DNA of 64,000 bases. It comes from an uncultured Methanosarcinales archaeon (GTDB lineage: Archaea > Nanobdellota > Nanobdellia > Woesearchaeales > ARS49). The stretch lies in assembly GCA_964637115.1 (NCBI GenBank), contig CAZWVL010000007.1:1-64000 (forward strand), read 5' to 3'. Of this stretch, positions 45,573-59,327 are shown piece by piece; position 1 is the first letter of the stretch, and each line of letters opens with the position of its first letter. Position numbers and translations under genes: made by a program. The notes under the pieces were generated by a model that was not told where the DNA came from, did no database searches, and saw only the letters and a list, made by a program, of their open reading frames with translations.

Positions 45573-45689
45573 CGGGCCGGACGGGAATGTCAACCATGGG
45601 CAGGAAGCCCATGACTTTTGAACCCGTGACCATCCGCTTTCTCTCTTGCGATAAAAGGCGGATGCTCTACCAGACTGAGCTACCGGCCC
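45573..45689 (-). tRNA. tRNA-Lys(UUU) with two introns (45639-45651 at 37/38; 45587-45616 at 59/60)
   Basis: Acceptor GGGCCGG/CCGGCCC, D-arm GCTC/GAGC, anticodon arm TCCGC-CTTTTAA-GCGGA, T-arm ACGGG-TTCAAAT-CCCGT after removing both inserts; both fold as BHB motifs. Confidence 0.9.
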
Positions 45690-45920
45690 TTGATTGTGCT
45701 TCACTCGAATAGCGATATCCGTATAGTCTGGTATGAATGTGAAAGAATTTTGAGATTTTTGACCCCATTGTGCGCACTACCCTGTAACAATAGAACCTGA
45801 GGGAAAGGAGGGGGTTTATAAAGGTTACGGTTTTTAAGGGCGTTATACATAGGGGGCAGATAATTCTAAACCCTTTTTTGTGCAAAATTGCCGGGGTTGG
45901 CTTGAGGAGTATCTTAGTGC

Positions 45921-47009
45921 TCAAACGTCGGCACGCGTAAATGCTTGATACGCTTCCTCGATAAAATTCTTTATTTTCTTTTTAAATAATTTCCGATCAA
46001 AACGGATAGCGTTTTTTCTGCAATCTTCGGCTGAAAATCTCATTCGTTCAAACTTGAGAACGGCTTTCGCTAATTCTCCTGCTGTTTGCTCATGGAAAAA
46101 ATGTCCTGTTTTGCCTTCAGTAACAGTCTCTAATAGTCCTCCTTTGGCGTATGCGACAACCGGCCTGCCGCAGGCCTGGGTTTCTAAAGGAGTTATACCA
46201 AAATCTTCTTCACCCGGAAATATGAGCGCCTTGCATCTCCTATAATAATCTCTGACTTCATTGTCAGGCAATCTTCCCAAAAACTTGATATTCGCATGAG
46301 CCATGTTTTTCAAACGAGACGCTTCAGGTCCATCTCCGATAATTATTAGCTGTTTTCCAAGGTGATTAAACGCCTTAACGGCAAGGTCTATTCTTTTTTG
46401 AAGCTGAAGTCGAGAAACAATAAGGTAAAAGTCCTCTGCCTTGCCTTTCGGAGTGAAAAAATCAACATCGACAGGTGGGTAAATAACAGTCGAATCCTGG
46501 TGATAGTGTTCTTTGATACTATTTTGGGTATTCTTTGAGTTGGCAATAAAATAATCAACGTTTTTTGTTTGCCGAAGATCCCATTTTTTTAGTCGTGAAA
46601 GCGTCCATTTAACCAGCGGACGGATGACCGGATTCATCCTACTTAGATACGTCTTGGGCATTGTGTATACAAATCTCATAGGGGTATGGCAATAACAAAT
46701 GTGGCAAGTCCGAGGAGGTTTGTTAATGTTCTTAGAAAAAGCTGCTGAACTGCTCAAAATCATATCGAAGTCTGACAAATCCAGACTTTCTGTTGCCCGT
46801 GGATACAGCGGAAGATACACGTAATGGTTTTTTCTTGAAAAAGGGAGCTTTTGAGCGAAACTTGTCCTGATTTTTGCGTCTGGAAAATATTGCTTTTTGT
46901 GGATCAAGGTGAAAATTGGCGCTTGAGGGTAGAGTTCATGGAATATCTCCAAAACTCTTTCACCGCCGCCAAATCCAGTCAGGAAATCATGTACTAGAGC
47001 GAGTTTCAT
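45921..47009 (-). CDS. Family 4 glycosyltransferase (WbaZ-like)
   Basis: GGGERVL, YCHTPMR, EDFGITPLETQACG. Confidence 0.92.
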   Translation of the reverse strand: MKLALVHDFLTGFGGGERVLEIFHELYPQAPIFTLIHKKQYFPDAKIRTSFAQKLPFSRKNHYVYLPLYPRATESLDLSDFDMILSSSAAFSKNINKPPRTCHICYCHTPMRFVYTMPKTYLSRMNPVIRPLVKWTLSRLKKWDLRQTKNVDYFIANSKNTQNSIKEHYHQDSTVIYPPVDVDFFTPKGKAEDFYLIVSRLQLQKRIDLAVKAFNHLGKQLIIIGDGPEASRLKNMAHANIKFLGRLPDNEVRDYYRRCKALIFPGEEDFGITPLETQACGRPVVAYAKGGLLETVTEGKTGHFFHEQTAGELAKAVLKFERMRFSAEDCRKNAIRFDRKLFKKKIKNFIEEAYQAFTRADV

Positions 47010-47039
47010 GTTGGAAGGTGTTTTTGTGTTGTAAATTTT

Positions 47040-48623
47040 TTATTTGGCCAGATCATTTTCTAATTCAACATAATTATAGTAGATTATAAAGGGAATTGCC
47101 ATTACTGTGGCGAATATAAAATGCAGCCCATGATGGAAAAAATAGTCAAAAAGATTATTGATTGAAAAGGCTAAAAAGCTAGCGAAGGATGCCAACACCA
47201 AAGGAATTTTCCTAAGCTTCAAACAGCAAATTATGAATAAAAACATTATAGACAAAAACAAAAGCAAGACAAACACCCCTCCTTCCAACCCGATCTGCAA
47301 ATAAAGATTATGAATATGACTCTTAGAAAACTCCTTACCCAATCCATACATTATTATCATCGATTCATAATTTCCAGGCCCGATTCCAAACCAAAGGTGG
47401 TTTTTAATCATGAGCAAAGCAGTTCGATATGCTTTAAACCTCGCCGAAACGCCAATATCTGCTGCAGAGAATTCCGCCTCCTGAAATGCGCCCGAGGGTG
47501 TTGTTCCGGAAGATGCTTCTTCTGGAACTTGAACTAAACTCACACCACTCGCTTCTATATTCTTTTGCACATCAAAGCCGAAACGATTTGTTAGTGTTCC
47601 ATTTAGAATAAATGGACTAACTGCGATAAACAAAAACAAGAACGCAAAAGCTACCTTCATTCTCATTTGTTTATTGCCTTTTACAATATGATATGCCGAA
47701 AGTAAAAGAAAAACAATACTAAATGACAATATTGAAGCTCTTGAAACTGATGAGAATAATGCGGCAAAGCATATTAGAAAAGCTAATGAGAGAAAAAAAT
47801 ATTTCATCATGTTTTTCTGATGAAAAGACAATACCAGAATGAAAGGCAGGACTAAGTTCAGAAATCCTCCCAAAAGATTAGGTTGATCGAGCGTTCCATA
47901 TCCTCTGATAAAATCATCATTTACGACATACTCAAGTTCAATATTCACAGGATTCGTTATACCAAAAAAATGCTGGTGCATTGCCAAAACTGAATTAAGA
48001 ACTGCAAAAATAATCAGCCACTTAATAGCTCTCTTTACATCAAACTTCCCTAAGAGCATCAACATAGAGATGAGACCAAAAAACTCTATCATGTGTATCA
48101 AAAAGCGGCTATTTGAAGAGAATGTTTTTTCCAAGGCCAAAAAAGGGCTCTGAAAAACCGATAAAAAATAAAAAATGCTAGTCAAAGTCACAAATGTGAG
48201 AAAAAAGATTATTGCTGTAAAAGTTGTCCAGAATAATGGCTTGTCTTTAACTTTGAAATATTTCTTTCTAAATAGAAACGCGATATAAAGACCCAACATA
48301 ACAGGTAAATTGACAATATATGCCAAAAATATACTTTTGTTTAAAATCAGGATATTTTTATTAACGCCAAATACCGCAAAAAAAATAACAATAATCACGC
48401 CATTTTCAACCTTCAAAAGAGTCAGGATGAAAATAAGAATAAGAAAAGGTATGAAAGAATACAAGTTGAGCGGAGACAATATAATAAATATTGAATAAAG
48501 AATGGCGGCAATAAATTGCAGTTCATTCAAATTAATTTTTGTTAGCAATGAATTTATCCAATTTTTTTCATCGCATAAGTTTAAAGGATGAACCTTATTA
48601 TACCCCGCTTGTGAATCTCCCAT
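47040..48623 (-). CDS. O-antigen ligase/polymerase (Wzy_C) family membrane protein
   Basis: Many TM helices; RGYGTLDQPN, SRAS, FGIGPGNY, HIHNLYLQ; start uncertain. Confidence 0.85.
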   Translation of the reverse strand: MGDSQAGYNKVHPLNLCDEKNWINSLLTKINLNELQFIAAILYSIFIILSPLNLYSFIPFLILIFILTLLKVENGVIIVIFFAVFGVNKNILILNKSIFLAYIVNLPVMLGLYIAFLFRKKYFKVKDKPLFWTTFTAIIFFLTFVTLTSIFYFLSVFQSPFLALEKTFSSNSRFLIHMIEFFGLISMLMLLGKFDVKRAIKWLIIFAVLNSVLAMHQHFFGITNPVNIELEYVVNDDFIRGYGTLDQPNLLGGFLNLVLPFILVLSFHQKNMMKYFFLSLAFLICFAALFSSVSRASILSFSIVFLLLSAYHIVKGNKQMRMKVAFAFLFLFIAVSPFILNGTLTNRFGFDVQKNIEASGVSLVQVPEEASSGTTPSGAFQEAEFSAADIGVSARFKAYRTALLMIKNHLWFGIGPGNYESMIIMYGLGKEFSKSHIHNLYLQIGLEGGVFVLLLFLSIMFLFIICCLKLRKIPLVLASFASFLAFSINNLFDYFFHHGLHFIFATVMAIPFIIYYNYVELENDLAK

Positions 48624-48667
48624 ATTTTTAAATAGAAAAATGTAAGCTTAAATATTTATCGGGGCAC

Positions 48668-49888
48668 TCATCTGATCAATGCCTTCGCCTTGGAACAATA
48701 CACTATAAACAAAAGAATCTGCGTGCCTACTGTGGCAATAGCAGCACCAATGAAGCTATATCGGGGAATCAGCAACAGATTCAATACAATGCCTACCAGA
48801 GCGCCGAAGCCCGCTGCCTTCACCACGAATTTTTGCTCATTGACTGCAATAACGAAATAGCTGACGATTGTTGAAAAAGAAAGAACGAAGAAAGACCAAA
48901 CGAGTATTTGCAGTACGGGAACGGATTTGTCAAATTCTGGTCCGTATAATGTTTTAATGAGCAAGGGCGAAGCGATAAAAATTGCTATGCTTACCAATCC
49001 TCCAAGAAGAAGCGACGCCCAAAAAATCTTTTTAAAAACCTTTTTCAGCGCAATCTGGCGCTGATGCAGGGAAGTAAATCTGGGCAAAACCGCTTTAACC
49101 AGCACCAGGGGAATAATGCCCAAAGCAAGTACAATCTGATTTGGTGCGCTAAACAAGCCAACAGCCTCCTCGGTTTTCATAATTCCAAGCAAAATCGTTG
49201 CTATCCTTTCACTAACTAGCGTGAAAGCAACGATAAAGAAAAAAGGCAGACCCTCCCTTAAAAAGATCTTCCACTTCTCGATATTAACCAAGAGCTTCGT
49301 CTTGCCGAATCTTCTCAAATAATAAATTGTGACAAAAAGACCAATCAGGGAGGCGAGCAAATAGAAAAAGAATATTTTTTCCACACTAATGGTGCCCAAG
49401 ATCGTGCCAAAGATAGCAATCATTGCAATTATGAAAAAGAGTGATTTCTCGACGATTTTTGCAATAGCCTCAAACTTTAACTGCTCATAAGCCCTGAATA
49501 TCACTTTCAAACTTTCATCGATCATATCTATGCTAACAAAAATACCAGCCAGGACGATTGCCAGAATGCTCTTTTTGAGAATAAACCCGACTATGATCAT
49601 GAGAACTATTACTCCTGCAGCCAGGAAAAATTTTAACGAAAGAATGTTTTCCAGATATTCTCTTTTCAGCTTTTTATTCTGTGCAATGTTTTTCAGATAG
49701 GCAAAAGGAATGCCAAAATCTATCAGCATGCCAAACAGCAAAGCGTATGCGAAAGTGAAAGAGTACAAGCCGAATTTTTCAACACCCAACGCTCTTGCGA
49801 AGAGAACCGTGAGTATGAACATCAACACCTTTGCAAAACCTTCTGCAAAGAGCATGTATGCTGAGTTTCTTATAATGCGCTTAAGCAT
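48668..49888 (-). CDS. Wzx-type oligosaccharide flippase
   Basis: ARALGVEKFGLYSF, AVGLFSA, LNLLLIPRYSFIGAAIAT. Confidence 0.88.
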   Translation of the reverse strand: MLKRIIRNSAYMLFAEGFAKVLMFILTVLFARALGVEKFGLYSFTFAYALLFGMLIDFGIPFAYLKNIAQNKKLKREYLENILSLKFFLAAGVIVLMIIVGFILKKSILAIVLAGIFVSIDMIDESLKVIFRAYEQLKFEAIAKIVEKSLFFIIAMIAIFGTILGTISVEKIFFFYLLASLIGLFVTIYYLRRFGKTKLLVNIEKWKIFLREGLPFFFIVAFTLVSERIATILLGIMKTEEAVGLFSAPNQIVLALGIIPLVLVKAVLPRFTSLHQRQIALKKVFKKIFWASLLLGGLVSIAIFIASPLLIKTLYGPEFDKSVPVLQILVWSFFVLSFSTIVSYFVIAVNEQKFVVKAAGFGALVGIVLNLLLIPRYSFIGAAIATVGTQILLFIVYCSKAKALIR

Positions 49889-51011
49889 AGAATTCCTTGT
49901 AAACTCCCAATGTTTCTAGAGCTGCTTTCTGCCAGCTAAATCTTTTTGCTTGAATTAATCCCTTTTCTATCATTTGTTTTCTTAATTTATCATTTGTCAG
50001 GACACTCTTCATGGCACTGGCCAATTCGTTGACATCATTAGGATTTACCCTTATTGCAGCGTCTCCTGCAACTTCAGGTAATGAGGAAACATTGCTTGTG
50101 ATAACCGGACAGCCGCAAGCCATTGCTTCCAGAACCGGGAGCCCAAAGCCCTCATGCAAGCTGGGAAAAACAAAAGCTTCTGCACCATTATAATAGAATT
50201 TCACCTCAGAATGATCAACGGGTCCGATAAAGCTCACATCGCCTTGCAAATTGAATTTTTCAATTGAATCGAAGACCTCGTCTGAACGCCAGCCTTTGCT
50301 GCCCGCAATAATGAATTTTTCTCGAATCTTATGCTCTTTTTTCAGCTTTGCGTATGCCTCAATTATTCTCGTGACATTTTTTCTCGGCTCTATTGTACCA
50401 ACAAAAAAGATAAAAGGAAAATCGATTTTCCTTTTTTTTAGAAAAACGTCAACCGTTTTCCTATTAAGAGGGTTGAAAAGATCACTAGCAGCTTCATAAA
50501 TAACAGAAATTTGCTTCGGGGGGATTTTAAAATACTTAATCATGCCTTCTTTTACCGATTCAGAAACAGCAATTATTTTTTTGGCCCGTTTCACAGAAAT
50601 TTTCGTGAGTAAATTGTGATAAAGATTTCTTTTCGAATCACGAGTTTCTTGAGATTTTATAGGCACTAAATCATGCATCGTTACAATTGCCTTCACAGGA
50701 CAAAAAAGAGGAAGAATATTCATGCCTGAATGAAAAAGATCAATCTTATATCTCAACAGCAAGATGGGAAGAATCAGTTGCTCCCAAAATACTCTTATTT
50801 GAGGATTCACCGTATTAATTCTTGATTGAATAAAATGGAAATTTTTCTTGTGCACGAAATGTTTGAAAGTATTATTTACGAAAATAAAATACTCATTCTG
50901 CGAATCTATTTTCGCAAGTTCATCAATCAAATTATAAAGATACGTACTGACGCCTGTGTTTCGAGGCGACTTACCCAATAGGAGCAATTGTGCGTTAATT
51001 CCAATGCGCAT
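49881..51011 (-). CDS. Family 4 glycosyltransferase (mannosyltransferase-like)
   Basis: [27 protein letters not shown]. Confidence 0.92.
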
Positions 51012-51083
51012 TATTCATCAAGATAAAAGGTGTTTATTTAAACTTTTGTTTAACTAATAATTGCAATCCTATGCGGAGACAGA

Positions 51084-52427
51084 CTATTTTCTAAAAATAA
51101 TCATTGGAATAGTTTTAAGAATTATTTTAATATCAAAAGGTAATGACCAGTTTTCTATATAATAAAGGTCGTATCTAATTCTTTCCTTCAGGGAAGTGTT
51201 TCCTCGGTAACCGTTGACTGCTGCCCAACCAGTCAATCCTGCCTTAATATTCAACCTTTCGAGGTATTTGGGGACTTTTGTTTCAAAATCTCTGACAAAA
51301 ACAGGTCGCTCTGGTCTCGGTCCAACAACGCTCAGGTCTCCATTTAATACGTTAACAAGTTGGGGTAATTCATCTAGATATGTTTTCCTCATGAAACTTC
51401 CCAGTCGCGTGCACTTTTGTCTGTCGTGACTCCACATAGCACCCGTTTTGCCTTCAGCTTTGTCGACCATGGATCTGAATTTGTATAAAGTGAAAAATTT
51501 GTTCCCTTCTGTCACTCTTTTTTGCTTGTATATTATTGGGCCTTGTGAATCAAGTTTAATTGCGATTGCCAAAAGAATAAGAAAGGGAGAGACAATAATG
51601 AGCAATAAGCTTGCTACAACAACATCAAAAGCACGCTTTAAAACAAGGTTAAATCCTTTCAAAGGGGTTTTAACTGTTAGCAGTGGAATTCCTTTTATTG
51701 TGTTGAGGTCGATTTTTGTGATGATGTCAAGCACGTCAGGAACTATTTTATAGGTTATTTTTTTGCCGCAGGCGGAGATTATCTGCAGGATTTTTTCGTG
51801 ATCATTGGGACCAAAAGCGAGTACCAGTTCGTCTATTTTCCTATTATCAATTATGCTTTTTAATTCGTTCAAATCTTTTATTGATGAATGCTTGCTATTT
51901 ATGAAATCAACAATTTTATATTGCGGAAGATCTCCTATTTTCTCATGTATTTTTCTAGCAAAGACTTTATCCCCGATGATAAGCACTCGTTGAACGCCAA
52001 TCCCGCGCATGAATAAATATTTGTTCACTGCATTGACCGCTTTACTCGAGATAAAAACAACTAAAATAGAGAGAATAAAAGCAATAACAACAACCAATCT
52101 CGAATAAGATTCTGCTCTATACAGAAAGGTGGTGGATAAAAGGATCAAAAAGCACAGACTCAGGGCCTTTACCACATTAAAAAAATCGATATTCGCGGAT
52201 TCATAAACATTCATGAGCTTAAAGACAACCACGCTGACAACCGTAACTACTATCATCGCCCTTAAATAAATTGAAAATGCAGGGATTTCGCTCGTCAATG
52301 GAATTAAAGGGGTATAGAATCTGATAAAGTACGCCAGCGTAAAAGCAAGATTTATGCTTAGAATATCTACTATAAAAAGAAGAAATTTTGAAATCCATTC
52401 GTAATCCTTTTGCCACCTGTATTTCAT
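51084..52427 (-). CDS. Polyprenyl-phosphate sugar phosphotransferase (WcaJ/WbaP family)
   Basis: 4 N-terminal TM, CoA-binding-like domain, KRAFD, KFRSM, DELPQL, VGPRPERP, GLTGWA, DLYYIENWS. Confidence 0.92.
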   Translation of the reverse strand: MKYRWQKDYEWISKFLLFIVDILSINLAFTLAYFIRFYTPLIPLTSEIPAFSIYLRAMIVVTVVSVVVFKLMNVYESANIDFFNVVKALSLCFLILLSTTFLYRAESYSRLVVVIAFILSILVVFISSKAVNAVNKYLFMRGIGVQRVLIIGDKVFARKIHEKIGDLPQYKIVDFINSKHSSIKDLNELKSIIDNRKIDELVLAFGPNDHEKILQIISACGKKITYKIVPDVLDIITKIDLNTIKGIPLLTVKTPLKGFNLVLKRAFDVVVASLLLIIVSPFLILLAIAIKLDSQGPIIYKQKRVTEGNKFFTLYKFRSMVDKAEGKTGAMWSHDRQKCTRLGSFMRKTYLDELPQLVNVLNGDLSVVGPRPERPVFVRDFETKVPKYLERLNIKAGLTGWAAVNGYRGNTSLKERIRYDLYYIENWSLPFDIKIILKTIPMIIFRK

Positions 52428-52566
52428 TTTGTGTAGCTACCAAATGCTTTCGAAAGCCTTATTCTACATAAATGTTGGCTAAGCGCAGAATCCGCTTCTT
52501 TGTTTTAAAGGTATTGGTAGTTAAGAGAAGAAAAAATTAAAAGTTAAAATAAAAAAAATAAAAAAA

Positions 52567-53151
52567 TTATAGACCTTTGCCGCACATTTCCTTCAAACAG
52601 GCCTCCCCATTCTGTTCGCAGCCCTGTATGCACGCGGCGTTACCTGGGTTAATAATGTTGCAGCTGGTTATGCAATGTCCTTTAAAAATATTACAAAAGT
52701 GTGCACAGTCTCCAGGAGTGTCGCAAATGACATCTTTTGTAACGGTGCATATCAGTTTGGAGAAGTGTCCTGGGTCCTCTTCACATGTGCGCGTAGCTAT
52801 GCTTGGAAGAACATACCAAGTAACACCAGTCACCTTGCAAGGCAAAGGTGGAGCTACAGCTCCACACTTACCTCTTGCTTTCGAGGCCCATGTTGTAATA
52901 GCAGAATCACAAAGTGAGTTCATAATGGCATTCGTATTTAAGTTCCCATGGGCTGCACAATTGCTAGGACTTGTGAAAGACCTGTCCTTTATTACTGTCA
53001 AGCCGGGGTCTGCACTTACGAAGCACGGGCCTAGTACGGAATTCGAATTAGGCGGAGGAGCTTGTTGCGCCATAGATGCTATAGCAAGAACAAGCGCAAA
53101 AATAGTTGCTATAACAGAAATTGATAATCCTATTCTACCTTTTGTATCCAT
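52567..53151 (-). CDS. Cys-rich exported protein, paralog 1
   Basis: MDTKGRIG leader + TM helix; EEDPGHFSKLIC; C-terminal CxxxC pairs; GGTGA SD. Confidence 0.8.
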   Translation of the reverse strand: MDTKGRIGLSISVIATIFALVLAIASMAQQAPPPNSNSVLGPCFVSADPGLTVIKDRSFTSPSNCAAHGNLNTNAIMNSLCDSAITTWASKARGKCGAVAPPLPCKVTGVTWYVLPSIATRTCEEDPGHFSKLICTVTKDVICDTPGDCAHFCNIFKGHCITSCNIINPGNAACIQGCEQNGEACLKEMCGKGL

Positions 53152-53202
53152 TATTATCACCTTTTTTTACGATAAAAAATTAAAAGTTAAAAAAGAAAAA
53201 AA

Positions 53203-53805
53203 TTATGGGTCTGCGCAGGCCATCTTGCATCGCATTTCCTCGGCTACACAGGCTTGTTTGCAGGCTGCATTGTCCGTACCACAAAATTCATCGCAGGACG
53301 CTTTAAAAACGGTTGTGCACGTCTTTTGACAGTCTCCAGGAGGTGCGCAAATTGCGTTAGCTTTAACTGTACATATCAGTTTGCTGAAGTGCCCTGGATC
53401 CTCTTCGCAAGAGCGTACTTGCGAACCTTCTGCAAGCCTCCATGAAACTGCACTCATCTTACAAGGCGAAAACGGTTTAGTTTCGCCGATAAACGGCGGA
53501 GGCAGTACAATCGCCGCGCACTTATTTTTTGTTAGAGCGAACCAATCTGTAAGAGCACGCTCGCAAAGTCTATTCATAATTGCATTCGTATTCAAGTTTC
53601 CATGCGCTGCACAAGTACTAGGAGTTGTAAAACTTTGATCTCTTATTACTGTTTGATCTGCGGTCACTACTACAAAACAACCTTTTAGAAACGTCTCCGC
53701 GAAGTCAGGCGGGGTTACAATAGTTGCCGATGCCATCGCCATAACAAGCGAAAGCGCAGTTGCGATAACGGCAATAGCCAATCCTATTCGACCTTTAGTA
53801 TCCAT
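53203..53805 (-). CDS. Cys-rich exported protein, paralog 2
   Basis: Same leader and motifs (CAAHGNLNTNAIMN, EEDPGHFSKLICTV); GGTGA SD. Confidence 0.8.
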   Translation of the reverse strand: MDTKGRIGLAIAVIATALSLVMAMASATIVTPPDFAETFLKGCFVVVTADQTVIRDQSFTTPSTCAAHGNLNTNAIMNRLCERALTDWFALTKNKCAAIVLPPPFIGETKPFSPCKMSAVSWRLAEGSQVRSCEEDPGHFSKLICTVKANAICAPPGDCQKTCTTVFKASCDEFCGTDNAACKQACVAEEMRCKMACADP

Positions 53806-53927
53806 TATTATCACCTTTTTCTTTTTTGGAACTGAAAAGTAGTTATTAATAATCTCAGTATTTAAACTTTTCTGTTTTACATTCGTACCAAAACATTTAA
53901 ATATAAGAAGATTATCGTTATTCACAG

Positions 53928-54446
53928 GTGGTTAAAATCGGCTTAAGAAAGAACTTGGTTATCGGAGGGCTTCTGGCAATTCTTGGGTGCTCGGAAAAAA
54001 AGGAACCATACACTCCTCCCACGCCGGAAAAACCAGCAAATCAGGAAAAAAGCACCGAAAAAACTCAGCCTCCTCTACAACCAAGCAGACTTGAAAAGTA
54101 TGAACAACCTACACAAACACGTCAAGCTTATGAGATTGTTTATTTTTATGACACGAATAAGATAGAAAAGCATGGCGAAGGCGTTGAGGGTGATCCAGAA
54201 CTCTCCCTACTCTGCCATAACTACGGCTTTTCTCTGTTCACTATTGCTTCTAATGCTGAGCTTGCCAAAAAGGAATTTAAACTAGCCGATAAGCCAGTGA
54301 TCATGATTTGCAAAGATATTATCGAGCTTGAACGATTTTTAGTAACAGACAGGCAGCAACTTGCTAGCCGCCTTGAGCAGGAGTTACGGTACCATAGTGG
54401 AAAAGGTACGCCTCCAGCAGGATGCAAGGATTATCAGAAGAAATAA
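53928..54446 (+). CDS. Lipoprotein, hypothetical
   Basis: GTG start, lipobox LAILGC, Pro/Lys/Glu-rich linker. Confidence 0.65.
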   Translation: MVKIGLRKNLVIGGLLAILGCSEKKEPYTPPTPEKPANQEKSTEKTQPPLQPSRLEKYEQPTQTRQAYEIVYFYDTNKIEKHGEGVEGDPELSLLCHNYGFSLFTIASNAELAKKEFKLADKPVIMICKDIIELERFLVTDRQQLASRLEQELRYHSGKGTPPAGCKDYQKK

Positions 54447-54449
54447 CTG

Positions 54450-56129
54450 TTAAATCTCTTTTTTAACCTCATAAATGAAATATCCTGTTACATTGCTCTG
54501 CACTTCCTTAAGATATACACAATCGAGAGCTTTTTGTGAAATAAGAAGTTTAGGCTTGTACCGCTCAACCCAGTCCAACCCCTGCTCGCACGAAGGTGAC
54601 TCAAAAAATCTGTCCGCTTCCCCTGATAATTCCGCACCACCCATCCAGTGAACAACAACAGAATTATTAGTTATGGGAATGGCGGAACTGAACCTCGGAT
54701 TAGCCAGTATCCTCTGGCCGGAATAATGAATTTTCAGCCAATCGAGCATCTCGTAATCCTTGTCGTCCACAATATAATCAAAAAGCGGGGGGAAATTGGC
54801 ACGAAGTTGGAAGCCAAAAATCAATGCGAGGAGTACGCCTGCGATTAATATAAAGACGTACTTCTTCTTTATTTTATGCCTGAGAATTCCAAGAAGATGA
54901 CTAAAACCTATACTGCCGATGAAAATAGCGAACAAAAGGACCAGATATATCAGTCTCTCCGGCCTAATTAGGTAAGAATATTTGATTATGGAACTAATTA
55001 AAAAACCTACAAGTGAAAAAATGAAAAAGAATGATAAAATTTTTTGATGCTTCTCCCCAAGTATAATATACAATCCAAACAGTCCACAAATAGCGAGTGG
55101 AATTCCAATGAGAAAATAATTTATGTTGTGGTACGGAAACTCTAATCGCCAGAAATTGGACAAAATTGTTTCTTTAATACCGCCCTTCCAGAACCAGCTC
55201 AAGAAGACTGCAGCAGATACGGCCAAGAGTCCAATAAAAAAAGCGCAGAAAACCTTCCAGTCCTTTTTCATGTTATAAACAACATAAGGCAAGGAAACGA
55301 CAAGAATGTACGCAGCAGCGCTCCCATGCAGCGTGAATGCGATGAAGATAAAAATACCCGCAAGAATCAGATAATTCGCACTTCTTTCAGTAAGCCATTT
55401 GTGCATGAGAAGAAGAAAGAGGAAGCAGAGTATGAGTGAAACTGTGAAAGGGACTGCCAGAATCAATCCCAGTATCAAAGAATTGCCCGGGATAGTGGCA
55501 GACAGAACCATGGCCAAAAGACTCGTCCAGAAATTCTTAGTCAGTTCATAAATAAACACAAAAATCACGAGGGCAGTGATAATACCGAACAATGCTGGCA
55601 GGAACTTGTAATCGAGCAACGGATCCATCTTAGTTAGCAGGAAAATGCTGGCAAGAAGCGCAGGAAATCCGGTCTTTGCATCGCAGTCATAAATATCATT
55701 ATATGGATTTATACAGAGCTTACCAGTTTCTGTTATCTTATACGCATGGTTCATGTAAAAGTATTCGGTGACGTGCAAAGGAAACCTATATGTGAAATGA
55801 GGAGAATAAATCAGAAAAAATACGACAATAACACCACTGAGAAGAAAAATGATCTTTTTAACCTCGAATTTTGGCACATCAACTAGCTTGTATCTTTTTG
55901 AAACAAAAAGGGACATAATTGTCAGCAGGGATCCTGCGAACAATGCTAATTTTACCGTAAAGCCATTGATTACATAAAAATTAAGCAACAATCCAGTTAA
56001 AACCAAAAAAGAAATAGAAAGCCCCAGCCCACAAACCACCCGTTCAAGAAAATCCTGCTTTTTGAAGAAGAAAAAAGTCAGCAAGTATCCAGTTACTAAT
56101 AATATAACAATCCACAATAAACCCGGCAT
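54450..56129 (-). CDS. Multi-pass membrane protein, probable GT-C-fold glycosyltransferase
   Basis: Over 12 TM segments; soluble C-terminal domain (EMLDWLK..ILANP..). Confidence 0.65.
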   Translation of the reverse strand: MPGLLWIVILLVTGYLLTFFFFKKQDFLERVVCGLGLSISFLVLTGLLLNFYVINGFTVKLALFAGSLLTIMSLFVSKRYKLVDVPKFEVKKIIFLLSGVIVVFFLIYSPHFTYRFPLHVTEYFYMNHAYKITETGKLCINPYNDIYDCDAKTGFPALLASIFLLTKMDPLLDYKFLPALFGIITALVIFVFIYELTKNFWTSLLAMVLSATIPGNSLILGLILAVPFTVSLILCFLFLLLMHKWLTERSANYLILAGIFIFIAFTLHGSAAAYILVVSLPYVVYNMKKDWKVFCAFFIGLLAVSAAVFLSWFWKGGIKETILSNFWRLEFPYHNINYFLIGIPLAICGLFGLYIILGEKHQKILSFFFIFSLVGFLISSIIKYSYLIRPERLIYLVLLFAIFIGSIGFSHLLGILRHKIKKKYVFILIAGVLLALIFGFQLRANFPPLFDYIVDDKDYEMLDWLKIHYSGQRILANPRFSSAIPITNNSVVVHWMGGAELSGEADRFFESPSCEQGLDWVERYKPKLLISQKALDCVYLKEVQSNVTGYFIYEVKKEI

Positions 56130-56208
56130 AGTGAGCGAAAAAGTTGCCGGTGCTTTAAAAGTTTCTATTAAGCGCTAGGCTGAATTTTATAAAATTAAGA
56201 GAAAAAAA

Positions 56209-56796
56209 TCAGGGGTCTATACACGTGTCAATGCATGCTCCCATATCAGACACGCACTTCTGCCTGCAAGGCGCGTTATCATCGCCACACGTTGACAAGC
56301 AAATTTTCTTGATACGCTCACAGTCTTTCACACAGTCACGCATATGCGAACATATCGGCGTATCTTTGGTTGTGCATGTGAGTTTGACTATGTGCCCTGG
56401 ATCAACCACGTCGCACTTGCGCGTATCAGCCAGACCACTCCTAATAAAAATGGTTGCCCATGGCGAATTGATTGTGCACGCTCTTTCTCCGGAAACAGTC
56501 ACGCATGATTTCTTTGCCTGGCTTATCCAAGATTCCTGCGTTTCCTTACATAGCGTATTCAATCTCGCATCCGTCTGCAACTGAGCTGCAGAAGGACAGG
56601 GACCAGCAACCGTAACGTCCTTTACGACAGTAATATCCGTTATTACAGCATTTGCTGCTTCACATTTTGCAATTGAAGAATCGGGCGCGGGAGCTGCCAC
56701 AGCTGTTTCCGCACCTATGCTTGCAAAGGCAACAAACAGCGAAATAATCGTTGCTATAAGAGCGATTCCAAGTCCTATCCTCGCTTTTACGTCCAT
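56209..56796 (-). CDS. Cys-rich exported protein, paralog 3 (diverged)
   Basis: MDVKARIGLGIALIAT leader; VVDPGHIVKLTC; CVKDC..CLSTC..CRQKC..CIDTC; GAGGTGA SD. Confidence 0.8.
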   Translation of the reverse strand: MDVKARIGLGIALIATIISLFVAFASIGAETAVAAPAPDSSIAKCEAANAVITDITVVKDVTVAGPCPSAAQLQTDARLNTLCKETQESWISQAKKSCVTVSGERACTINSPWATIFIRSGLADTRKCDVVDPGHIVKLTCTTKDTPICSHMRDCVKDCERIKKICLSTCGDDNAPCRQKCVSDMGACIDTCIDP

Positions 56797-56918
56797 CAGA
56801 ATCACCTCTTTATTGTACCCTTAAGTGCGCGCCTATTTAAAAAATTTTCCATTATACTGCTGGCACATCGCCCTTGAACACGCGAAGCTTTTTATTCAAA
56901 AGAAATTCCTGACCTACC

Positions 56919-57587
56919 ATGAGCACAAACAAAAAACACCCATTTTCCCAACACCATCTCTATCTGCTAATTCTCAGCATTTTTTTATTCTGTTTTTTTG
57001 CCAAAATAACTGAAGATGTCATGAATAATGGGTTCTTTACTAAATTTGATTCGTTGGTGAGTACGAAAATAGTTTTGCTCTGGAATCCTGTGCTTACAAA
57101 AATAATGGTGTTCATCACAAATATCGCCAGCACTCCTAGTTTGTTCATTCTTTCACTCACGTTTTTGGGCGTGCTCGCATACAAGAGAAAATGGCGTGAT
57201 TCCTTGCTCTTGATATGTGCACTGGCTGGCACACGGATATTGGAGCTGCTTACAAAATTCATGGTCCACAGAGCGCGACCGGAGAATGCATTGATTGAAG
57301 TTTCTAACTACAGTTTTCCAAGCGGGCATGCAGCAATGTCAATCGTTTTCTTTTCACTGCTTATCTATTCATTTAAGGACGACATCAAAAATAAAATGTT
57401 CAAGAATTTTTTTATAACCGCTAATGTATTCTTATTCATATTGATAGGATTCAGCAGGATTTACCTTAATGTCCACTGGTTGAGCGACGTGCTGGCAGGA
57501 TTTGCCCTCGGGTCATTCTGGCTCACCTTAATGATCCTGACTTTTCAATCAGTAATTGCTCTCGCAAAAAAGACTTTCCCTTCCTGA
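56919..57587 (+). CDS. PAP2-family phosphatase (polyprenyl-diphosphate phosphatase-like)
   Basis: KFMVHRARP, SFPSGHA, SRIYLNVHWLSDV. Confidence 0.9.
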   Translation: MSTNKKHPFSQHHLYLLILSIFLFCFFAKITEDVMNNGFFTKFDSLVSTKIVLLWNPVLTKIMVFITNIASTPSLFILSLTFLGVLAYKRKWRDSLLLICALAGTRILELLTKFMVHRARPENALIEVSNYSFPSGHAAMSIVFFSLLIYSFKDDIKNKMFKNFFITANVFLFILIGFSRIYLNVHWLSDVLAGFALGSFWLTLMILTFQSVIALAKKTFPS

Positions 57588-57645
57588 AAAACTGGAAAAC
57601 GGCTCCTTCTTGTTTGCCGGTCTAAATCTTGAAATACGCCGAGGC
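57568..57645. repeat. Repeat R copy 2, including a 9-nt tRNA-Asp 3'-end remnant (57637-57645)
   Basis: 50/63 ungapped identities (hand count) between 57583-57645 and 59175-59237. Confidence 0.8.
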
Positions 57646-58148
57646 TACTTCAAAAGCTCCTTAGCCTTTTGCAGATAGAACAGGTCCCTTTTAACTATAA
57701 ACTTGCCATTATACTCATCGGGCCTTTCGTTCTTAAGCAGCTCTATTGCTTTATCAATTGACACCCAAACAAGTTTAGCCCCTTCTTCAATTTCTTCCTG
57801 AGTAAATTCCGGCTTGCCTTCCTTGACAACCTCTGCAAGAAAACAATGCGACGTTTGAACCATATCCTCGTGCGTGCGGTGCTCAATAATCTCACCCAGT
57901 TCACCAATCACACGAACAGAACAACCAGTTTCCTCCTTGATTTCCCTGGCAAGCGCATCAGGAATGCTCTCGCCGGAATCAACACCGCCACCTGGCAGCT
58001 TATGGTATTTGTGTTTGCTAATATGAAGCAAAGCGATAAGACCCTTATTCATCATAACTGCCCTGGCAGCAGTTCTAGGAATATGCTTAGAATCCTCTTT
58101 TGGCTTCACACCAACATCAACATCACTGAGTTCAAGAATGGTTTTCAT
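57645..58148 (-). CDS. NUDIX hydrolase
   Basis: LPGGGVDSGESIPDALAREIKEETG. Confidence 0.92.
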   Translation of the reverse strand: MKTILELSDVDVGVKPKEDSKHIPRTAARAVMMNKGLIALLHISKHKYHKLPGGGVDSGESIPDALAREIKEETGCSVRVIGELGEIIEHRTHEDMVQTSHCFLAEVVKEGKPEFTQEEIEEGAKLVWVSIDKAIELLKNERPDEYNGKFIVKRDLFYLQKAKELLK

Positions 58149-58154
58149 AAAATT

Positions 58155-58248
58155 AAAACGCCGGGGCCGGGATTACTTGCGAAGTGCGCTTCGCAAGTTG
58201 CTCGGAAATCCAAAGGATTTCCGACATGAACCCGAGGGTTCAAATCCC
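58155..58248 (-). repeat. Duplicated tRNA-Asp 3' end (att-like) expanded into a four-way-junction palindrome
   Basis: 58155-58174 identical to 59225-59244; 58227-58234 identical to 59245-59252; 52-nt double-hairpin insert between. Confidence 0.85.
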
Positions 58249-58387
58249 CTTCACAAAATAGTGCAAGAGCTTCGCTCGAAACATACGCCGTTGTGTTTAC
58301 TGTTCTGGCTTTTTAATCTTTCTGGATGAGCCGTGCATTACAATTTCATTACATATCTCAAAAAGCGGGCAAACACCCTAAGAAAAG

Positions 58388-58774
58388 GTGAAGAGTTTTG
58401 CGATTAAGTTTGGCAATATTTATAAAGAAAATCATTTTTATGAGTTTTCAATGGGACGTCTCGTAAAAACTCAGGATTGGGAGAGCCGAGCGATTGTAAG
58501 TTTTTTGGGCGGATACAGCATAACACAACAAGCTTTTAAGGCAGACTTTGAAACAAAGCGAGGAAAATTTTACGTGCTTATTTGGGCAGATCTAGACCGA
58601 CATGAAATGGTTATTAATGATCGTTATAATATAGAAGCGTTGCAAAAGGCGTGCAGTCAAAATGCGTTTGTACTGATTTCTGAATTGTTCCCGAAGGGAA
58701 GCAAAATAATAACTTCGTATAATGAGATTAATGATGTTTTGGCAAAAATTGCAGATATCATAAAAGAAGAATGA
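58388..58774 (+). CDS. Hypothetical protein (AT-rich, cassette cargo)
   Basis: 128 aa, GTG start; lies between the two tRNA-Asp end copies. Confidence 0.6.
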   Translation: MKSFAIKFGNIYKENHFYEFSMGRLVKTQDWESRAIVSFLGGYSITQQAFKADFETKRGKFYVLIWADLDRHEMVINDRYNIEALQKACSQNAFVLISELFPKGSKIITSYNEINDVLAKIADIIKEE

Positions 58775-59025
58775 TTGCTCATACAACCTTTAGGAACAAT
58801 TCCGGATTGCTTGCCAGGCTTATCATGGATATGCGATATTAACCTAATAACCTCTAGTTTGTTGAGGGGTGTTCTACAGGTCCAATTTTTACTGTTCTTA
58901 CCAAGCTTAGTTTTTTCTTAAAAATTTGCGCGAACCGGTACAAATCCTGAAAAGAATTTTACTTTCATTTTATTTATAAATGAAAGTTGTTGCCGGTTCA
59001 AATCCTGTTTTGCAAGGATAGATTT

Positions 59026-59139
59026 ATGAATTTCGCTCACAACTTGCTTTCCGAAATTGCCAGAATGGTGCTGAGAGGCGCTATTCCGGCAAAAACAATG
59101 CAAGAAAGTGATTTGGCTAAAATTTTGAGAAAAAAATGA
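59026..59139 (+). CDS. Possible 37-aa microprotein
   Basis: MNFAHNLLSEIARMVLRGAIPAKTMQESDLAKILRKK; AGGA upstream. Confidence 0.3.
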   Translation: MNFAHNLLSEIARMVLRGAIPAKTMQESDLAKILRKK

Positions 59140-59157
59140 CAAGAAAAACAAGCTCAG

Positions 59158-59228
59158 AAAAGACTTTTTTCTTACCTGAACGGCCGGCAAACAGCTCCTT
59201 TTCGATTGCCAGTCTAAATCCTGAAAAA
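59158..59228. repeat. Repeat R copy 1, immediately 3' of tRNA-Asp
   Basis: Homologous to 57568-57636. Confidence 0.8.
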
Positions 59229-59301
59229 CGCCGGGGCCGGGATTTGAACCCGGGTTGCAAGCGCGACAGGCTCGCGTGCTAGACCACTGCACTACCCCGG
59301 C
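59229..59301 (-). tRNA. tRNA-Asp(GUC), intronless, no encoded CCA
   Basis: GCCGGGG/CCCCGGC acceptor, G73, CGAGC-CTGTCGC-GCTTG anticodon arm, CCGGG-TTCAAAT-CCCGG T-arm. Confidence 0.95.
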
Positions 59302-59327
59302 AGCAGTTTTGAGAGGGAAACACGTGG

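Follow-up and report, generated by a model that had tools for sequence, protein, structure and literature searches.

A two-hairpin module at a split T-arm copy behind tRNA-Asp, and a candidate family of protein-less DNA insertions in an archaeal lineage

Mobile DNA classically inserts at tRNA genes, and in archaea these genes are known for odd interruptions. The split tRNA genes of Nanoarchaeum carry complementary leader sequences that hold the pieces together. Copies of a tRNA 3′ end also occur in E. coli, where the tRNA-linked repeats of the tyrT operon (RtT RNA, Rfam RF00391) lie downstream of the gene within structured spacer units; these repeats have no inverted T-arm and no T-loop insert, and they are ascribed to unequal recombination. 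A further point of reference is given by integron attC sites, which act as folded single strands.

The locus described here lies in a 64,000-nt stretch of DNA from an uncultured archaeon (hereafter, the window; genome G000). A first-pass annotation, made from the sequence alone, had described it as a tRNA T-arm remnant rebuilt into a four-way junction, and had proposed that it served either as a folded single-stranded DNA substrate for recombination or as a structured leader for the adjacent NUDIX gene. The tRNA-like part of the locus comprises positions 51-73 only, with the acceptor 5′ strand absent upstream, and an intact tRNA-Asp gene is found about 1 kb away. A literature search for such elements in DPANN or Woesearchaeota returned no description.

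Architecture and folding of the locus

Read on the tRNA strand (minus), the module is made up of an inverted arm, a loop, tRNA positions 51-57, an insert and positions 58-73, together spanning 58159-58249. The features of the locus are as follows.

59228-59302, minus strand: intact tRNA-Asp(GTC) gene (ARAGORN; Rfam tRNA, 65 bits), source of the copied 3′ part of the module
58284-59227, minus strand: repeated cassette of ~940 nt that separates tRNA-Asp from the module; it occurs again behind tRNA-Ser(GGA), on contig C2
58250-58283, minus strand: spacer S, 34 nt, element-borne, with a GC mini-hairpin (58267-58277) and then a T-rich tract; a homologous core is present at other tRNAs
58236-58249, minus strand: inverted copy of the tRNA-Asp T-arm ("splint"), 14 nt, identified from the sequence
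58243-58249, minus strand: part of the inverted arm that forms stem P1 with the start of the tail copy
58236-58242, minus strand: part of the inverted arm that forms stem P2 with the direct T-arm half
58234-58235, minus strand: 2-nt loop at the centre of the palindrome
58227-58233, minus strand: tRNA-Asp positions 51-57 in direct orientation (5′ strand of the T-stem and first four T-loop bases), from alignment with the tRNA
58199-58226, minus strand: HP1, a hairpin of the 52-nt insert, 12 bp with one extrahelical G and a conserved foot; member of a dispersed hairpin family
58175-58198, minus strand: HP2, the other hairpin of the insert, 10 bp with a conserved foot
58155-58174, minus strand: tail copy, with tRNA-Asp positions 58-73 in direct orientation and then a T-run, giving a direct repeat of 20 nt with the end of the gene itself

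The 52-nt insert thus consists of two flush hairpins (58175-58226) placed exactly between A57 and A58, which is the dyad centre of the T-arm. The structural elements of the first-pass annotation are present in the sequence: the closing stem pairs 58169-58174 with 58243-58248, the 10-bp hairpin corresponds to 58175-58198, the 12-bp hairpin with one extrahelical base to 58199-58226 and the T-arm hairpin to 58227-58242. Excision of 58175-58226 does yield an inverted duplication of the tRNA-Asp T-arm, and the mini-hairpin, previously placed at about 58265-58275, was found at 58267-58277. The expression "remnant rebuilt", on the other hand, is misleading, because a split T-arm copy and an inverted arm typify every copy of the family described below.

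An insert at this position could be an intron. According to one explanation, the module would be the original, intron-bearing 3′ half of tRNA-Asp, displaced by an incoming intron-less half, and the 52 nt would be a T-loop intron. A true T-loop intron does exist in the tRNA-Lys(UUU) gene of G000 (45573-45689), and one layout in a relative (locus L003 of G014, described below) looks like a displaced 3′ half. However, the insert has no bulge-helix-bulge motif, as its central helix forms only 1 of 4 pairs in either canonical arrangement, the predicted pre-tRNA fold presents two flush hairpins in the T-loop, and no intact tRNA gene with the insert was found in G000. We regard this explanation as highly improbable, and in large part refuted. 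A bulge-helix-bulge intron as such was ruled out on the same count of 1 of 4 central-helix pairs, obtained with a model pre-tRNA (tRNA-Asp plus insert). Likewise rejected was a minus-strand tRNA gene that is split or rich in introns, since ARAGORN with introns allowed and Rfam both came back empty and no acceptor 5′ strand lies upstream.

When the locus was folded with DNA parameters, the minimum-free-energy structure of both strands was the four-way junction (-29.5 and -29.0 kcal/mol; z = -6.1 and -5.7), and none of 200 shuffled sequences matched this energy. The gap-free character that had been claimed for the junction, with zero unpaired bases at the branch point, was thereby confirmed. With RNA parameters the plus strand gave the same four-way junction (-44.8, z = -5.0), and the minus strand retained the three hairpins, with a neighbouring GGGG/CCCC as the closing stem instead.

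Covariation in the hairpins was analysed on a model-based alignment of 35 distinct rows, for which the insert model had been derived from four well-aligned copies. In this alignment, where fitting to the model itself favours pairing, 95% of the pair cells were actually paired and compensatory changes were seen in 18 of 20 pairs. The cells changed on both sides numbered 128, as compared to 33.5 ± 4.7 in shuffles (0 of 500 shuffles reached 128), and fell to 5-10 when the pairing partners were slid, showing that the hairpin tops covary. The feet of the hairpins, in turn, were conserved, and one base was invariably extrahelical across modules, a combination that fits what would be expected if a protein recognized the folded strand.

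The stems of the modules were nearly all Watson-Crick on either strand, with 22 G-U pairs in the sense and 15 in the antisense orientation; without one old copy the count was 14 versus 14. The old copy in question is the decayed module behind tRNA-Pro in G006, whose fold is held by 8 sense G-U pairs versus 1 antisense, which hints that selection has acted on a single strand, be it of DNA or as an RNA.

These data bear on the possibility that the module is a functional small RNA or a structured tRNA trailer, transcribed with the tRNA or just after it and forming a stable, cloverleaf-like domain; such an RNA might, for example, lock away the tRNA-tail decoy, bring about termination or processing of the tRNA transcript, or serve as a leader for whichever gene comes next. 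The strength of the RNA folds (z between -4.7 and -5.0) would agree with such a role, as would the sense G-U pairs in the decayed copy (8 vs 1) and the resemblance of the spacer to a hairpin plus T-tract terminator. Furthermore, read-through is plausible, since no clear T-run terminator separates several of the modules from their tRNA. Against it stand the nearly pure Watson-Crick stems and the equal folding of both strands, and a scan of 58150-58300 with Rfam (including the RtT and tRNA families) gave no match at E-values up to 10. Together with the comparison of relatives, presented below, these observations make a functional RNA quite unlikely.

Given an arm, a split T-arm copy and two hairpins, the four-way junction is necessarily adopted whenever the DNA is single-stranded or extruded. 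In topology, the modelled structure is a Holliday junction with three capped arms, predicted to join the target duplex (arm plus split T-arm) and the two-hairpin insert. If its two crossing strands were cut, the insert would come free in the form of a closed dumbbell, and what is left would be a perfect hairpin.

Modules behind other tRNA genes

A second module was found in G000, on contig C21, following tRNA-Pro(TGG). In relatives, the host tRNAs were Asp, Glu(UUC), Glu(CUC), Pro(UGG), Pro(CGG), Arg(GCG), Tyr and several Ser. The search of DPANN genomes for tRNA 3′ fragments carrying T-loop inserts, suggested by the first-pass annotation, showed that the layout recurs: 21 distinct modules were parsed, behind at least 10 different tRNA genes and in 4 genera of the window's family. 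All 21 had flush junctions, with a P1 of 4-7 bp, a P2 of 4-9 bp, a loop of mostly 2-3 nt and an insert of 50-125 nt. The earlier opinion that such order was unlikely to result from decay therefore holds, the architecture being a family trait behind many tRNAs, with covarying hairpins.

A strict pattern (arm, loop, half T-arm and insert start) matched 20 times in 13 of 77 genomes of the family, belonging to 4 of its 29 genera, whereas the reversed pattern, used as a control, gave 0 matches. The unpublished genomes G010, G023 and G094 count in the denominators, and in the integrase tally given below, but carry none of the conclusions. Beyond the family, 394 genomes representing 135 other families of the order were free of matches to the strict pattern. 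A metagenome-assembled genome labelled Aenigmatarchaeota, from a distant part of DPANN, had this layout too, built with unrelated hairpins. Viral contigs yielded 7 pattern matches and no true module among them, and the matches listed in a wider scan of genome contigs were mostly chance ones in large bacterial genomes. Since the layout is repeated on contig C21 and was recovered from over a dozen assemblies that are independent of each other, a fold-back assembly artefact is very unlikely.

Two public contigs labelled "Methanosarcinales", CAYYLN010000001.1 and CAYGVI010000001.1, contain modules that are identical to the ones present in G088 and G087, which belong to the window's family, and the label of both contigs looks wrong. 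At G000:C3:144205-144322, a tRNA-Ser(CGA) gene is followed by a stretch of about 100 Ns and then by a copy of its own last 16 nt, which is probably another module.

Comparing modules at different tRNAs allowed us to tell target-derived from element-borne parts. The inverted arm, 13-14 nt long, follows the tRNA it adjoins: its base opposite position 57 was T for A57 and C for G57 of the module's own tRNA in 21 of 21 cases. It mirrors the T-stem, too, as in the module behind tRNA-Pro(CGG) of G009, where three departures from the common arm all match that tRNA. The tail copy is a direct repeat of 17-22 nt with the gene, from A58 to 1-6 nt beyond the discriminator base. The spacer core, in turn, is common to the modules behind the Asp, Glu and Tyr tRNAs of the genus, and the feet of both hairpins are common to modules at different tRNAs. 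We know of no transposition or site-specific recombination mechanism that makes a target-derived inverted copy of 13-14 nt; the copy could be templated at insertion or homogenised afterwards.

The tRNA-Asp site varies among close relatives. It carries the module in G000, G005, G014, G004 and G002, and is empty in G001 and G006, where the same downstream spacer and tRNA-Lys are kept; the empty sites identify the module as an insertion. In G003 the site holds a variant that has the spacer and the arm, other hairpins and no direct T-arm half, and in G009 a different small element. Turnover is fast: even between G005 and G014, whose flanks are near-identical, the first hairpin differs, having been exchanged for another subtype in one genome and tripled in the second, and one of the three copies in G014 is inverted. 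That close relatives either lack the module or have different hairpins in it also speaks against a functional RNA.

Insert and arm were found together with a single exception, namely an armless insert at locus L003 of G014, which interrupts the T-loop of a diverged 3′ half of tRNA-Ser that follows a small gene cassette. The converse arrangement, a palindrome of the arm and an intact T-arm with no insert, was found in 0 of 77 family genomes, and a two-step origin through a long-lived insert-free palindrome was rejected on this ground. A metagenome collection returned five matches to the insert-free palindrome, which were high-GC operator-like palindromes or head-to-head tRNA fragments, none of them in a module context. 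A perfect T-arm palindrome that lacks an insert and is followed by an acceptor 3′ strand lies at about 1939-1985 on metagenomic contig Ga0214917_10062383; the contig, with a GC of 0.55, stems from another organism, and the palindrome may be an att-type site belonging to another lineage.

Hairpins of the HP1 type are also dispersed through G000, in about 25-28 copies, compared to 5 in the shuffled genome, with five head-to-head pairs. Examples are found at C8:45707-45760, C2:5562-5664, C4:102096-102189 and C26:2580-2653. The foot of these hairpins starts with TGTC and ends with GAGCA, one G is extrahelical and the stems fall into two classes; copies are frequently arranged head-to-head in pairs that measure about 95-100 nt, and nested hairpins occur inside loops.

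Neighbouring elements and the search for enzymes

The ~940-nt cassette between tRNA-Asp and the module ends in a short tRNA-tail copy (58284-58292). Its second copy (G000:C2:153400-155022, L090) is 91-96% identical at the ends, of which about 375 nt on the left and 112 nt on the right are conserved, and has a different middle: one copy encodes a 128-aa ORF with no known family, and the other a 355-aa lipoprotein-like ORF. The ORF near the module (58388-58774) matched no Pfam family. A 15-mer resembling an inverted T-arm opens the left end of the cassette and is repeated twice in its interior. The cassette is absent in G005 and G014, whose modules directly follow the tRNA.

On the other side of the module, a 12.4-kb island (window 45760-58154) extends to tRNA-Lys(UUU); it is absent in G005, G014, G001 and G006. 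Its genes encode NUDIX (the first one), PAP2, two GT4 glycosyltransferases, a Wzy-like ligase, a flippase, a sugar transferase and several ORFs without a family, and no recombinase was found among these proteins. The island is bounded by the tail copy of the module on one side and by a degenerate tail copy near 45888 on the other. The NUDIX gene belongs to this island and is found only in the window's genome; in G005 and G014 it is missing, and tRNA-Lys lies about 190 nt after the orthologous module. The proposal that the structure was a leader for the NUDIX gene did not survive this comparison, because the orthologous modules of those two genomes precede tRNA-Lys and the other copies precede unrelated sequence. 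For the same reason, i.e., a downstream gene that differs at every copy and a NUDIX gene specific to G000, a leader role of the kind considered above for a functional RNA loses ground, and the NUDIX leader was rejected.

Other tRNA inserts were observed in G000. The tRNA-Lys(UUU) gene (45573-45689, minus strand), missed by both ARAGORN and an Rfam gathering scan, has two introns, and the one in the T-loop is unrelated in sequence to the 52-nt insert. Following tRNA-Val(GAC) (G000:C3, 137518-137590) and tRNA-Leu(CAA) (G000:C12, 16751-16860) are inserts of 63 and 84 nt that share a hairpin. They are flanked by tRNA repeats of 13-14 nt, from the T-stem 3′ strand to the end, a length like that of the attR repeats left by the family's integrases.

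Profile searches of G000, which is 98% complete, were run with positive controls and returned no match for a Y1 HUH transposase (PF01797), tyrosine recombinase, TnpB, serine recombinase, IS110 recombinase (PF01548), Cas1 or reverse transcriptase. For PF00589 there were zero matches, not even a Xer-type recombinase with that profile. Tyrosine integrases that target tRNA genes are present in relatives. G004 encodes one of 444 aa (L222:1636-2970; PF00589, 9e-17) after an intact tRNA-Pro(UGG); its Pro module lies on another contig, and the two contigs have no sequence overlap. Homologues occur in 27 of 77 family genomes (including the unpublished G023 and G094) and in 25 of 75 public ones, and 24 of the 28 public loci adjoin a tRNA 3′ end. 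The integrase genes of the relatives (L226-L255) lie 60-500 nt after Pro, Phe, Gly, Tyr, Thr, Ala, Asp, Leu, Glu and Asn tRNAs, in elements about 5-12 kb long, whose distal ends (attR) are plain tail repeats of 11-13 nt from the T-stem 3′ strand (~position 61). No inverted arm or hairpins were found at these attR scars. Ordinary integration scars therefore exist in the lineage and differ from the module, and a tie between the module and those integrases would be conjectural.

The same facts help to weigh a more conventional history, in which a tyrosine integrase left an attR in tRNA-Asp, a two-hairpin, MITE-like repeat later entered the spare T-loop, and the arm derives from a lost att region or from chance. 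Integrases beside tRNA genes are common in the family, as just described, their elements do end in tRNA-tail repeats, the first hairpin is a member of a dispersed family, and the insert of G014 (L003) lies in its T-loop with no arm. However, two independent events would not give the same layout 21 times, at 10 or more tRNAs and always at A57|A58; the arm never occurs without the insert (0 of 77 genomes), the canonical attR starts at about position 61 and has no arm, and G000 has no integrase. An integration scar combined with an unrelated repeat is, in our opinion, unlikely.

Interpretation and comparison with known systems

Considering the evidence as a whole, we think it somewhat probable that the locus belongs to a lineage-specific family of small, protein-less DNA insertion modules, located directly 3′ of tRNA genes, and that the folded form is the substrate. 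A non-autonomous insertion or recombination module acting at the DNA level best fits the sequence data, given the presence or absence of the module in close relatives, the many targets, the fold available to both strands almost only through Watson-Crick pairs, and the conserved feet and extrahelical base. The folded single-stranded recombination substrate of the first-pass annotation is, to this extent, consistent with the insertion status of the module, with its Watson-Crick stems on both strands and with the conserved feet and the invariably extrahelical base. The analysis turned up no enzyme, intermediate or excision product.

Mechanistically, we envisage a module composed of the spacer, the inverted T-arm copy, the T-arm 5′ half, the two-hairpin insert at A57|A58 and the tRNA copy from A58, so placed that the intact upstream tRNA would stay functional. 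The folded junction could then serve as substrate for a structure-specific strand exchange that creates, relocates or removes the module. This activity might be provided in trans by the tRNA-targeting integrative elements of the family or, alternatively, by host junction-processing enzymes, and the inverted arm might act as a guide by pairing with the target T-arm. The G000 module itself would be non-autonomous and is probably inert, and its tRNA-tail copy may later have become the landing point of the 12-kb polysaccharide-gene island that starts with NUDIX.

A bolder version, which we consider doubtful, is that these modules are a new class of protein-less mobile DNA, in which a target-complementary arm is carried along or copied at each insertion and movement proceeds via an intermediate that folds on itself like a Holliday junction and is processed by junction enzymes of the host or by a trans-acting recombinase. 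The same process would also seed T-loop interruptions in tRNA genes. If this were true, archaeal tRNA introns and split tRNA genes could have arrived by this route.

The module places structured DNA at the T-loop of a spare tRNA copy, with an arm matched to the target, in genomes without the usual transposases. If the junction is the working form, it provides a concrete oligonucleotide substrate of about 95 nt with which to find the enzyme, and it could also represent a new, base-pairing way of targeting DNA. Were it only a scar, it would still mark the interval between tRNA-Asp and tRNA-Lys as a hotspot in which cassettes and a polysaccharide island have accumulated.

Among known systems, the bridge-RNA elements of the IS110 type share with the module a target-complementary arm, a resemblance only, as PF01548 has no match in G000. 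Like the E. coli RtT repeats, the module includes a copy of a tRNA 3′ end downstream of the gene; unlike them, it has no match in Rfam. Archaeal T-loop bulge-helix-bulge introns and split tRNAs are similar in that an intervening sequence sits in the T-loop of a tRNA-like sequence, here in a DPANN archaeon, but the module has neither the bulge-helix-bulge motif nor a tRNA 5′ part, and an intact tRNA of the same type is nearby.

The HP1-type hairpins are reminiscent of REP, BIME and REPIN sequences and of MITEs, being short, dispersed, intergenic, often head-to-head and provided with conserved feet, with no coding gene. Unlike REP/REPIN and the palindrome-associated IS200/IS605 elements (PATE), they have no RAYT/Y1 transposase in G000 to go with them, and within the module the hairpins are fixed inside a tRNA-tail copy, accompanied by a target-derived arm and a long, variable duplication. 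This duplication, 17-22 nt and always reaching the tRNA end, also departs from MITEs, and no parent element or transposase was found.

With the attL/attR duplications of integrative elements, the module shares a direct repeat of the tRNA 3′ part (20 nt here) that flanks the inserted DNA and leaves the tRNA intact. The repeat, however, is 17-22 nt long and begins at A58, whereas the integrase scars have 11-13 nt from about position 61; moreover, in the module it is preceded by an inverted T-arm matching the tRNA and by a split half of the T-arm that bears two hairpins. Most modules carry no cargo or integrase, and homologous spacers and hairpins recur at many tRNAs.

Finally, the likeness to integron attC sites, raised in the first-pass annotation and intended as an analogy only, extends to an imperfect palindrome, a conserved extrahelical base, a variable but covarying top, a conserved foot and a position flanking gene cassettes. 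The feet of the module hairpins differ in having no R and L boxes and no GTTRRRY core, and G000 has no IntI-type integrase. An attC site is a single hairpin, whereas the module forms a four-way junction built in part from the sequence of its target.
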